Source: Eledone cirrhosa (taxonomy: Eukaryota). Taken from it: a DNA stretch of 64,000 nt. Positions 11,616-40,928 of the stretch are shown one piece after another. The position numbers and the translations under genes were made by a program. The stretch's first letter is position 1, and each line of letters starts with the position of its first letter. The DNA is taken from assembly GCA_964016885.1 (NCBI GenBank), contig OZ024742.1, forward strand, positions 170,934,001-170,998,000. The letters run 5' to 3'. The notes below the pieces were generated by a model, which ran no database searches, had not been told where the DNA came from, and worked only from the letters and a program-made list of their open reading frames with translations.

Positions 11616-11766
11616 CTAACAGAATGACCCGGCATTGCTCGGGATTTGCTCTTGGGTTCTTATATATTTGATATATATTTATCCTTATCGAGCCTCGGGA
11701 AATAAATACGTTTGTTTATATTTTATTATTGTGTATGCAAAAATATCTGTACATGAATATATAATT
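11616..11766 (-). mobile_element. 3' end of a family H Helitron-like element
   Basis: Reverse complement ends CAAATCCCGAGCAATGCCGGGTCATTCTGTTAG|T and is homologous to 603-757. Confidence 0.72.
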
Positions 11767-12515
11767 CTCTCTCTCTCTCTCTCTCTCTCTCTCTCTCTCT
11801 CTCTCTCTCTCTCTCTCTCTATATATATATATATATATATATATATATATATATATATATTATATTATCTCTCTCTCTATATATATATTATATTATCTCT
11901 CTCTCTATATATATATATTATATTATCTCTCTCTCTATATATATATTATATTATCTCTCTCTATATATATATATTATATTATCTCTCTCTCTATATATAT
12001 ATTATATTATCTCTCTCTATATATATTATATTATCTCTCTCTCTATATATATATTATATTATCTCTCTCTATATATATATTATATTATCTCTCTCTCTCT
12101 ATATATATATATTATATTATCTCTCTCGATATTATATTATCTCTCTATATATATATATTATATTATCTATATATATATATATATTATATTATCTATATAT
12201 ATATATATATTATATTATATATATATATTATATTATATATATATATATATATATTTATATTATATTATATATATATTATATTATATATATATTATATTAT
12301 ATATATATTATATTATATATATATATATATTATATTATATATATATATATATATATATTTATATTATATTATATATATATTATATTATATATATATTATA
12401 TTATATATTATATTATATATATATATATATATATATTATATTATATATATATATATTATATATATATTATATTATATATATATATATTATATATATATTA
12501 TATTATATAATATAT
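11767..12515. repeat. Compound (CT)n/(TA)n microsatellite and minisatellite
   Basis: Repeats of TATTATATTATCTCTCTC(TA)n grading into pure A/T. Confidence 0.92.
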
Positions 12516-12555
12516 ATATAATAAATAACAAAGAACGCCTATAGCATATGCATAT

Positions 12556-12613
12556 CTTTACTTGCTAACATTGTTTCATCCGCACTATAAGTGGGACTCA
12601 TCAGAGCATAAAG
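12556..12613 (-). ncRNA. Type I hammerhead ribozyme (family A, left arm)
   Basis: Reverse complement of 20027-20084. Confidence 0.8.
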
Positions 12614-36729: not shown

Positions 36730-38016
36730 TGTGTATATATATATATATTATATATTGTGCGTGAGAGAGAGTGTGTATATATATTTGTGTGTGTGTGTGT
36801 GTGTGTATGTGTGTATTCGCGTGTGTGTATATATATGTGTATATTTATGTATAGGTCTGTGTATGTATGTGTATGTTTGTATATATATGGATATATATAT
36901 ATATATATATATATGTATAAATATTTATACATATGCATGTGTATGTGTGTGTGTGTGTATGTGTATATATATGTGTATATATGTGTGTGCGTGTATATAT
37001 ATATGTGTGTGTATATGTATGTATATATATATATATATATATATATATATGTATGTATGTATGTGTGTGTGTATGTGTATATATGTGTGTGTGTATGTGT
37101 GTGTATATGTGTATATATAACATGTATATGTGTGTGTATATTTATATATATATATGTATATATGTGTGTATATATATATATATGTATATATATATATATA
37201 TATGTATATACATGCGTGTATATATGTGTATATATATGTTTATATATTTGTATATGTATGTTTGTATGTGTGTTTGTATGTGTATATATATATATATATA
37301 TATATATATGTATATGTATATATGTGTGTGTGTCTGTATGCATATGTGTGTGTATATTTTTATATATATGTATATATTTATGTGTATATATATATATATA
37401 TATATATATATATATATGTATATATGTATGTATAAGTGTGTATGTATGTGTGTATATATATATGTATATATGTGGGTGCGTGTATATATGTGTATATATA
37501 TATATATATGTATATATATATATATATATATATATATGTATGTGTGTGTGTATATATATGTGTATATATATATATATGTATATATATATATATATTTATG
37601 TATGGTGCTTTTTCCTTATATATGTGTATATGTGTGTATGTGTGTGTATATATATATATGTATATATATATATATATATATATATATATATATATATATA
37701 TATATATATATATATATATATGTGTGTGTATGTATGTGTGCCTGTGTGTTTGTATGTGTATATATTTGTTTTATGTGTATATATATATATATATATATAT
37801 ATATGTATGTGTATATATGTATATATGTATATGGTTATATATATGAATGTATATATATATATGTATATGTATATATATGTGTGTGTGTGTGTTTGTGTGT
37901 ATGTGTGTGTATATGTGTGTGTATGGGTTTTTATATATACATGTATGTATGTGTGTGTATGTATATATGTGTATATATATATATATATATATATATATAT
38001 ATATATATATATATTA
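36730..38016. repeat. Compound (TA)/(TG) low-complexity region
   Basis: Visible directly; may belong to the family D right arm. Confidence 0.85.
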
Positions 38017-38957
38017 GTATACGTATGTGTGTGTATATATATGTGTATGTATGTATGTGTGTATGTGTGTATATATATATATATATATATATATATATAG
38101 ATATATATATATATATATATATATATATATATATATATATATATATATATATGTGTGTATATGTGTCTGTGTATATGTATGTATATATGTCTATATGTAT
38201 TTATGTGTATATGTATACACATGTATATTTGTGTTTGTATGTATGTGTGTGATTGTATTTATATGTGTATATATGTGTGTGTGTGTGTATGTATGTGTAT
38301 GTGTGTGTGTATGTGTATATATATATGTGTGTATATATATATATATATATATATATATATATATGTGTGTGTATATGTGTTTGTGTGTGTGTTAATGGTT
38401 GCGCGTAAGTGTGTGAGTGAGTATGTTTTTTTGTTTTTTTTGTGAATGTGTCTGTTGATTTTTGGCATATAGTTGATTAGTTTAAGAGAAGTTCGAAGAT
38501 AATAGTAAGATATGCACTCAGTATTTTGAATCTGTCTGCAGAATTTCTAGACCTTTGTCACTTAGTAGAACCTTAATGATTTTAGCTTTTAAAGAATCTC
38601 CCTTTTCTTTAATTCTATCGACCATGACTGACCCCCCACTGATTTTATAGACATCTGTTAGCTTAAGAGAAACTTAATGACAAGGAATGGTATGCCATCC
38701 GGAACCTGTTTATAGAATTCTGTCTGCCCTTGTTACTCTAAAAACATAAATAAATAAAAATAAACTATAGCTTTGTAGAATTAGCTTTTAATGAATTCCC
38801 TTTTCTATCAACCAATGACCTGCACCCATCCCACTCCCCACCCTCTCCTACCACTTGTAGAGACCTATAAATACCATTTTTATTTTTTGATACCCAGATT
38901 CCTGATGATTTCTAATGAATGAAACAGTTCTAGTCCTGTAGAATCTCATCTATATTA
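38017..38957 (+). mobile_element. Right arm of family D element
   Basis: Reverse complement of 24467-25492 with few substitutions; ends CATCTATATTA into (TA)n. Confidence 0.8.
38896..38946 (+). ncRNA. Type I hammerhead ribozyme (family D)
   Basis: AGATTC CTGATGA T-TTC taat GAA-T GAA ACAG ttctagtc CTGT A GAATCT: 6-bp stem I, 4-bp stem III, GUA triplet. Confidence 0.8.
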
Positions 38958-40452
38958 TATATTATATATATATATATATATATAATATATATATTATATA
39001 TATATATATATATATATATATATATATATATATATAATATATATATATAATATATATATATATATTATATATATATAATATATATATATATATTATATAT
39101 ATATATATATATATAATATATATATATTATATATATATTATACATATATATAATATATATATATTTTATATATATATATAATATATATATATATTATATA
39201 TATATATATAATATATATATATAATATATATATATATATTATATATATATATATATAATATATATAATATATATATATGTATTATATATATATATTATAT
39301 ATATATTATATATATATATATAATATATATATATTATATATATATATATAATATATATATATATTATATATATATATATAATATATATATATAATATATA
39401 TATATATATTATATATATATATATATAATATATATAATATATATATATTATATATATATATATAATATATATATATTATATATATATATATAATATATAT
39501 ATATAATATATATATATATATTATATATATTATATATATATATAATATATATATATATAATATATATATATATTATATATATATATATAATATATATATT
39601 ATATATATATATATTATATATATATATATATAATATATATATATATAATATATATATATAATATATATATATATTATATATATATATAATATATATATAT
39701 ATATTATATATATATATAATATACATATATAATATATATATATATATTATATATATATATAATATATATATATAATATATATATATATATTATATATATA
39801 TATAATATATATATATAATATATATATATTATATATGTATATATATATATAATATATATATATATTATATATATATATATATATAATATATATATATTAT
39901 ATATATAATATATATATATAATATATATATATATTATATATATATATATATATAATATATATATATTATATATATATATATTATATATATATATATATAT
40001 ATAATATATATATATATATATATAATATATATATATTATATATATATATATTATATATATATATATTATATATATATATATTATATATATATATATATAT
40101 ATATATATATATATATTATATATATATATATTATATATATATATATATATATATATATACAATATATATATATATATATATAATATATATATATTATATA
40201 TATATATATATATATATATATATATATATATATATATATATATTATATATATATATATATATATATATATATATATAATATATATATATATATATATATA
40301 TAATATATATATATATATATATATATAATATATATATATTATATATATATATATATAATATATATATATTATATATATATATATATATATATATATATAT
40401 ATATATATATATATATATATATATATATATATATATATAAAAATATATATAA
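38958..40452. repeat. About 1.5-kb interrupted (TA)n tract
   Basis: Visible directly. Confidence 0.95.
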
Positions 40453-40928
40453 ATATTAAAATAACAGATTAAAGTTTAAGCAAAGAATCGCTGCTTTCAC
40501 CATTAACAGGATCTTCTGAAACTAAAAAAATCAATCTGTGAACGCAGAAGTAAATATTTCGTAAAACGTTACACACTATATATATATATATATACACACA
40601 CACACTATATACACATTGTCCTAATCCACACACACACACAGCGTCATAATGTCGTAATGCAGACAGCCGACATACAGACAGATATTATAAGGGTGCAACG
40701 TTATATCTATGTATCTATCTAAAAAGAAAGACTAAGAATTATAGAGAGAGATCGCTAAATCGCCTAATGCGGTCCCTAGGGCATCGAAATTTGAAATTTC
40801 TCTTGCTCAAACCACTCACAGGACCATAAGTATTACATATGTAAAGTTTGGAAACAATCGGCTGGGTGATTCTCGAAGTTTAGGGAGTCAGACAGAGAGA
40901 CAGACATTCTCTGTTTTAGATATATAGA
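40453..40928 (-). mobile_element. 5' half of a family H Helitron-like element
   Basis: On the minus strand it starts A|TCTATATATCTAAAACAGAGAATGTCTGTC. Homologous to 1-487, including the HHR module. Confidence 0.72.
40473..40523 (-). ncRNA. Hammerhead-like motif (family H, copy 3)
   Basis: Reverse complement reads AGTTT CAGAAGA TCCTGTTAATGGT GAAAGCAGCGATTCTTTGCTT AAACT. Confidence 0.52.

Follow-up and report, generated by a model that had tools for sequence, protein, structure and literature searches.

Probable splitting of a short Helitron-type element at its TA repeat and its filling by Penelope-like retroelements in Eledone cirrhosa

Organization of the locus

The window analyzed here is a stretch of 64,000 nt from the 3.0-Gb genome assembly of Eledone cirrhosa (GCA_964016885.1, contig OZ024742.1, positions 170,934,001-170,998,000, forward strand), in which two halves of a non-autonomous Helitron-type element, designated family H, delimit a span of about 29 kb (Table 1). 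The halves total 639 bp and bracket 28.7 kb, composed of TA-type array (~7.2 kb), Penelope-like elements (PLEs; ~21.1 kb), a 205-bp end resembling a long interspersed nuclear element (LINE) and a 200-N assembly gap, with no unique DNA anywhere between them. The span is likely to represent one short Helitron-type copy split at its TA repeat, the interior being made up of expanded TA arrays and three young PLEs of TA-targeting families. The labels H, A and D follow, as far as they could be mapped, the families of a preliminary description of the same DNA, and E, M and H2 are those of the present analysis.

The preliminary description placed a 5' body, a hammerhead ribozyme (HHR) module and a 3' part in split order on the minus strand, and both the module positions and this order are borne out. 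It further assigned the element a 3' hairpin, a CTAG end and A/T flanks (a slash marks the element boundary); the hairpin and the flanks hold, but the split copy ends in TTAG/T, an ending found 51 times genome-wide against 1,642 CTAG ends of the same pattern. Its account of the interior as TA tracts and retroelements is mostly accurate, except that 11767-11820 is (TC)27 rather than TA; in the adjoining array, at 11820-12160, the TC/TA junction is repeated roughly twelve times. Nesting within a TA run is recovered for D, which lies inside a TA run of the untranslated region (UTR) of E, but the proposed insertion of "family B inside D's TA run" could not be mapped for certain. The RTE label given to 36041-36245 is unconfirmed, the fragment being a LINE-like 3' end only, with no reverse transcriptase (RT) in the longer copy that was translated. 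Its zinc-finger motif may be linked to RTE elements. The LINE-like family is present in high copy number, with 11 TA-tailed ends in a background set of 60 random 10-kb stretches (600 kb).

Table 1. Features of the 29-kb span and the reference H copy (positions in the window; pLTR, pseudo-long terminal repeat)
Feature	Position	Strand	Remarks
Reference H copy	1-757	+	Longer module form, CTAG/T end, 5' end outside window; sits in TA tract of H2
H 3' part	11616-11766	-	51 nt of inverted M tail, 16-nt hairpin, TTAG/T end
(TC)27, then array reiterating TC/TA junction, then TA array	11767-12510	.	0.7 kb
A, Hydra-type inverted pair	12511-20215	.	7.7 kb; minus arm 12511-15967, plus arm 15968-20215 + tail; strict hammerhead cores at 12604 and 20036
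Expanded TA array	20216-24384	.	4.2 kb; "AA" signature as in 38945-40440
E left arm + tail	24385-25524	-	1.1 kb; strict hammerhead core at 24522
D, Neptune-like, in TA run of E UTR	25525-35516	+	10.0 kb; inverted pLTR 25525-25826 + partial tandem of three units
LINE-like 5'-truncated 3' end, C2H2-type motif	36041-36245	-	TA/CA arrays either side: 35517-36040, 36246-36529
Assembly gap, 200 N	36530-36729	.	
E right arm: TG/TA-rich 3' UTR + pLTR, short end	36730-38944	+	2.2 kb; strict hammerhead core at 38902
Expanded TA array, phase-shift ("AA") interruptions	38945-40440	.	1.5 kb
Module: M 3' pLTR arm, very probably captured; decayed hammerhead-like motif	40441-40570	-	97.5% identity over 118 nt to 3' end of M copy L335
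H 5' body	40571-40928	-	A/TCTATATATCT start at 40928, TC = 40928-40927; small TG/TA microsatellite

Family H as a Helitron-type element

H is confirmed as a family of non-autonomous Helitron-type elements, which open with A/TC and close with a hairpin and CTAG/T, intact copies being mostly 615-740 bp long. Here and below, family samples are the best-scoring copies per family rather than random draws. The 5' start is A/TC in 51 of 78 sampled ends and G/TC directly after a CTAG in 8 more, and CTAG/T, which conforms to the 3' CTRR pattern, closes 82 of 96 sampled 3' ends. The hairpin, a 16-nt imperfect palindrome that folds with DNA parameters, stops 12 nt before the 3' end. Insertion takes place between A and T, with no target duplication visible by eye in the flanks (there being no empty site to compare), and head-to-tail tandems occur. 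The subterminal inverted repeats and T-rich target that define Helentrons and HINEs were not seen, since the TC and CTAG ends lie at A/T; no search was aimed at short subterminal repeats.

The copy number of H is about 10^4. First-look searches for which the 3' part and the 5' body served as queries returned 130, 720 and 1,747 candidates. The exact 29-nt 3'-end pattern, with its 1,642 genome-wide occurrences, is present in 4 of 22 sampled ends, which gives ~9,000 copies; an estimate from random DNA, with 4 H ends in 600 kb, comes to ~20,000.

Rep/helicase genes, which were searched for with PF14214 (150 scored of 3,704 candidates, 20 loci fetched), are abundant, and several of the fetched loci end in a similar hairpin and CTAG. 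Near-identical Rep/helicase matches are spaced ~100-200 kb apart on a few small contigs (C19, C20, C27, C16), which suggests a Helitron within a large tandem unit. In addition, H starts often directly abut the CTAG of another Helitron-type 3' end with a GC-rich hairpin (L042, L057, L011, L028, L283, L298), so that several Helitron-type families form head-to-tail chains.

The reference H copy, placed at 1-757 by the preliminary description, shows the module order described, but begins upstream of the window, its 5' TC being at about -1297. It is interrupted by a LINE fragment of 1.2 kb, which has an 8-bp target duplication, and measures ~810 bp when the LINE is discounted.

The captured Penelope-like end

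The HHR module of H very probably derives by capture from an older Hydra-type family, M, whose 3' pLTR arm it represents, a point that the preliminary description missed. Copies of the module outside H are truncated to varying degrees at the 5' side, have inverted short arms and carry a 95-nt tail that runs out in (TA)n; at L186/L335, the module forms the end of a full-length element that encodes a Penelope-like open reading frame (ORF). Apart from the close match of the module in the span (Table 1), nucleotides 73-123 of the H 3' part (51 nt) are 96% identical to the M tail, and the loose ends of short-read contigs show the same sequence sharing between H and M. Among 76 H copies, the breakpoint in the module is a common one in 59, a longer form in 12 and another in 5. 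The recurrence of one breakpoint in 59 of 76 copies fits a single capture or a few, and the M end would accordingly have been captured once or a few times and then spread by H. As the parent of the module, a miniature inverted-repeat transposable element with terminal inverted repeats was rejected, because the 5' end varies, the arms are unequal and the full-length copy encodes a Penelope-like ORF.

The motif within the module is hammerhead-like in layout and non-canonical in its core. The core reads CAGAAGA, a U4A change, in 92 of 119 copies and CTGAAGA in 1 of 119; the H module departs from the strict hammerhead core (C3 U4 G5 A6 N7 G8 A9 ... G12 A13 A14 A15.1, U16.1 H17), and an Rfam scan of the window gave no match at gathering score. 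Helices of 5, 3 and 5 bp surround the core in the copies at 418 and 826. A relaxed hammerhead descriptor is passed by 2 of 2,000 random 118-mers, and the copy in the span, whose helix II has decayed further, fails it. The ribozyme claim of the preliminary description survives as a layout beyond chance, but not as a canonical core, nor for the decayed helix II of the split copy. Such core changes are usually disabling, yet an active U-U pair at 10.1-11.1 is known (PMC3088659), and hammerhead motifs have been placed in the pLTRs of PLEs (PMC4209133). With this layout and a U4A core in most copies, the motif is best called a relic. Another M-related arm, with the core CTAAAGA and a lengthened helix II, lies beside a TA tract at 43570-43650.

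H2 is a second Helitron-like family, found at 758-1144 on the minus strand (5' TC at ~1144) and at L200 (8619-10000), that carries the same M-derived module as H. The reference H copy sits in opposite orientation inside the TA tract of this H2 copy and is itself cut by the LINE, which makes a second three-layer nest in the window.

The inserted Penelope-like elements

A, E and M appear to be of Hydra type, and D Neptune-like, with Nematis as the other candidate, as judged from motifs. Translations of A, E and M show, by eye, an RT with a C-terminal GIY-YIG-type endonuclease that lacks CCHH, a CxCX5C linker, and CxxC and CxH near the C-terminus. The M ORF (at L335) carries RWR and DKT and the E-linked ORF (read at L334) RWR and DKA, while A is 5'-truncated in the span. 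The translation of D contains DKSG, a CX4CxxC linker and CCHH, in agreement with the Neptune criteria of a DKG-type motif, a CX2-5CxxC linker and a GIY-YIG domain with CCHH. Pfam returned a weak RVT_1 match for D, a GIY-YIG match for a D relative at 52599 and no match for A. General PLE traits, namely pLTRs, an inverted 5'-truncated arm, a one-sided tail and a (TA)n target, are present, and strict hammerhead cores occur in A, E and a D-related family. The inserts are younger than the H copy that hosts them: A, D and E are matched elsewhere by copies at 99-100% identity, whereas the best matches among other H copies reach 94-97%.

The E right arm alone contains 20 runs of at least (TA)6. The 3' UTR of E, which exceeds 2 kb and consists almost entirely of TG/TA repeats (36730-38383), resembles low-complexity background but is part of the element, and it is often invaded (L325-L334). 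In the D ORF, the RT is preceded by a long low-complexity insert rich in asparagine (listed spans 27345-28724 and 31340-34807), and in the A ORF a shorter low-complexity insert separates RT and endonuclease. Elsewhere in the window, D-related Neptune-like pieces at 3213-3905, 4352-4783, 6927-7534 and 51651-53921 end at TA tracts outside H, with strict hammerhead cores at 7150, 7272 and 53717, and a further Hydra-like element with inverted arms lies between TA tracts at 45546-47503. A diverged tandem repeat region was also seen at 55332-56124 in a self-comparison of the window.

The two halves as one copy

The split halves are highly likely to be one H copy. As the preliminary description had asked, it was determined whether H halves are normally contiguous across a short (TA)n, and they are: among 29 non-self copies anchored at the 5' side, the 3' part lies within 1.8 kb in 23, and a hand count of the same copies found a pure TA spacer in 14, an insert of at most 20 nt in 2, foreign DNA in the main tract in 11 and other rearrangements in 2. 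Where both halves were recovered on one locus, the spacer is pure TA in 53 of 71 copies and holds an insert in 18, a set that underestimates the number of long inserts, most loci being 3 kb in length; the median pure spacer is 35 nt, ~15 nt of it flank. When 19 unresolved copies were extended to 10 kb, the partner half appeared in 8, an ambiguous fragment in 1 and neither in 10. Six other split H copies have resolved main-tract inserts of 1.9-7.3 kb, E lying inside H at L047 and a D-related element inside H at L190. The 28.7-kb interval is the largest H split seen, in a search of stretches of at most 10 kb, in which inserts above 10 kb could not show elsewhere.

That the halves are unrelated remnants, juxtaposed by chance or through a faulty join at the gap, is quite unlikely. 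The gap does lie inside the span with no read across it, no partner within 10 kb was found for up to 10 of ~87 sampled copies, and shared alleles did not tie the two halves to each other; yet the order, strand and A/T flanks are all correct, the interval is free of unique DNA, and rough arithmetic from the density of H puts the expectation of a stray, correctly oriented 3' half within 29 kb at ~1%. The sequence on the two sides of the gap also agrees. The flanking E arms form a long arm with tail and an inverted short arm, as at L101, L104, L105, L107, L111 and L118, and differ at 3 positions in ~560 bp. The arrays outside both arms share a phase-shift signature (cosine 0.93-1.00) that is matched by 3 of 44 other long arrays, from 2 loci, and the array beyond A is related to these signatures (cosine 0.84-0.88). 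Since the E arm pair and the rare array signature are found on both sides, the gap is probably joined correctly. The halves are, moreover, equally diverged from the column majority (16/387, 4.1%, and 7/151, 4.6%). Short-read contigs of one sample, which may be the assembly's own, run without mismatch from unique flank into the H 3' end (11077-11652 and 11077-11673).

Several results count against the reading of the span as one split Helitron-type copy. No short-read contig bridges the 5' junction or the gap, and the 12 runs listed include none of long reads. Neither the remainder of the E left arm nor the inversion junction is seen, both being either missing or hidden in the gap. The search for an empty site with the left flank gave a single match, the window itself, so that this flank is single copy; the right flank was not searched. 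A pattern that included a rare allele matched only the window, the rare 5' alleles are hardly shared at all by 7 further TTAG-ended copies in which both halves are present, and the distance profiles of the halves proved powerless, with a correlation of -0.14 for true and mismatched pairs alike. Orphan H halves may exist, as the 10 of 19 extended copies without a partner within 10 kb indicate, and H ends are present in none of the 20 fetched Rep/helicase loci where an autonomous partner was sought. Copy L051, which has the TTAG end and 4 of the 13 rare 5' alleles in common with the split copy, was dropped as a candidate sister copy, given the TTAG-ended copies without shared rare alleles.

TA tracts of H as retroelement targets

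The division of one H copy at its internal TA tract by repeated TA-targeted insertion, as the preliminary description proposed, is probable, foreign DNA occupying the main tract in 11 of 29 copies. That H tracts are enriched for PLE insertions, and that they form a distinct or important cross-class niche, did not withstand comparison with other TA tracts. The 600 kb of random DNA contain 385 TA tracts, which make up 6% of bases, and only 2 of the 385 are internal to H; genome-wide, ~1.9 million TA tracts stand against ~10^4 H copies. Other families contribute more tracts than H does, among them the LINE-like family with its 11 TA-tailed ends in the same amount of DNA. Recurrent element ends face 33 of 150 H tract sides (22%) and 83 of 399 non-recurrent background sides (21%; Fisher p 0.81), a recurrence test that rests on a 2-Mb sequence pool. 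Because ~8 of the 33 facing ends are variants of H itself, H is if anything below background. When a shorter cut-off is applied, a recurrent element end adjoins at least 175 of 442 background tracts, dozens of families being represented.

The ends of young A, D and E insertions, examined on one side per insertion, give the same picture. They are followed directly by TA in 85 of 87 parsed cases, the other 2 beginning with interrupted TA. Of these non-self ends, 81 of 87 were resolved (in 4 the locus ended or gave way to N, and 2 were unparsed), and an H half abuts none of the 81 (upper 95% bound ~4.5%), free M arms abutting 2. The 1.5 kb downstream of each of the 87 ends are free of H 5' starts, 3' starts and 3' ends.

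H is thus a passive and minor supplier of TA tracts, in the order of ~0.5-1%, and the locus is an extreme case of ordinary nesting, not a special niche. It is very unlikely that rolling-circle spread of H provides a substantial or preferred share of PLE landing sites. Such a role might be read from the ~40% of H copies (11/29) with an insertion in a tract of only ~20 bp, from the 59 of 150 sides that do not face the partner half (some of them facing H variants) and from the Penelope-like arm that adjoins the tract within H; against it stand a hit rate equal to background, the rarity of H among TA tracts, the many families already found at random tracts and the absence of H at or near young ends.

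The regeneration of TA tracts by PLEs, another element of the preliminary description, is unneeded, the tract lengths matching plain length-proportional targeting: flanks of at least 300 bp are found beside 18 of 86 young ends, where length-weighted targeting predicts 23%, and the median flank is 74 against an expected 89. A rather unlikely alternative, which may add to ordinary targeting of existing tracts, is that the PLE RT or nick repair builds long arrays by recopying the local target. Arrays beside young ends do have locus-specific units, often the same on both sides (L129, TA9-TTCA; L140, GTTACC; flanks of L122-L181), the TC/TA junction is reiterated beside A, and pure H tracts in the sample stay below ~190 bp; the fit of flank lengths to length-weighted targeting speaks against recopying, an argument that is partly circular in that background arrays may themselves be such products.

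Proposed history of the span

A microsatellite within an ancestral H may first have received an M insertion, and the resulting chimera would have been copied ~10^4 times, with Rep/helicase supplied in trans, as the single breakpoint of 59 of 76 copies suggests. One such copy came to lie at the present A/T site, its halves now ~4% off the column majority. Slippage may have lengthened its TA tract, ~20 bp in most copies, to an array of kilobase size with a phase shift peculiar to the locus, and this array would have presented a larger target for insertion. A and E lie in the array as inverted pairs with one-sided tails, probably inserted by target-primed reverse transcription at (TA)n nicks, and the order would have been H, then A and E, then D. 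A positive feedback can be envisaged, in which each insertion splits a tract and E brings in ~20 more TA runs; longer tracts and TA-rich UTRs, being larger targets, would draw more insertions. On a broader scale, it is quite unlikely that a Helitron which took up the end of a TA-targeting retroelement along with its target site, and dispersed ~10^4 prepared landing sites, seeds runaway nests in regions devoid of other TA targets and so adds measurably to genome growth; in this loop from retroelement to Helitron and back to retroelement, the capture has good support, and it is the measurable contribution that is doubtful.

Significance and comparison with known systems

The locus matters modestly as a worked example in which (TA)n-targeting PLEs would have inflated a 0.64-kb element ~46-fold. 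It also carries a warning for annotation, because the same 118 nt serve as a PLE pLTR and as the interior of a Helitron, so that automatic repeat libraries will mislabel one of the two. Since their tract starts short and uniform, H copies would make good natural reporters of insertion rate per TA base and of tract lengthening.

TA targeting by PLEs and microsatellite-carrying Helitrons are both already published; what appears to be new is a Helitron that amplifies a captured Penelope-like end with a ribozyme-like motif. No report of a Helitron that carries a PLE end, or serves as a PLE target, was found among titles and the beginnings of abstracts, a scope that excludes supplements and most subscription journals, and repeat databases may hold such a consensus. 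Passages of bioRxiv 10.64898/2026.07.22.740005 and PMC13282606 do not describe a chimera of the H/M type.

Canonical Helitrons have a 5' TC, a 3' CTRR, a hairpin ~11 bp from the end and an A/T target (PMC4067079). H shares the termini, the hairpin, the target dinucleotide, the non-coding interior and the head-to-tail tandems of canonical non-autonomous members; it differs in an interior that consists of a PLE pLTR arm and tail piece, very probably captured, and its partner was not found in 20 loci. DINE-1/HINE elements and lepidopteran MINEs spread an internal microsatellite by rolling-circle transposition, and Helitrons also insert into microsatellites (PMC4067079, PMC3812793, PMC9659126). 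In contrast to these, with their subterminal inverted repeats and T-rich target, H has canonical Helitron ends, and its tract is (TA)n and secondarily invaded.

In the pLTR hammerheads of PLEs (PMC4209133), the same type I layout is found at the 3' pLTR, 22 nt from the short end, as in the H module. The module differs in that most of its copies have A in place of U4, and in the U-U at 10.1-11.1. For Hydra and Neptune PLEs, (TA)n targets, partial tandems, inverted 5'-truncated arms and one-sided tails have been described (PMC8557442); the tails are ~70-95 nt here and 30-40 there, the M core is non-canonical, and the E UTR is longer than 2 kb and rich in TA runs. MuTAnT elements likewise target TA microsatellites, repeats that have been regarded as "safe havens", or low-cost sites, at which nesting follows (PMC4486113), whereas in Eledone cirrhosa the target lies, in a small minority of cases, inside an element of another class.

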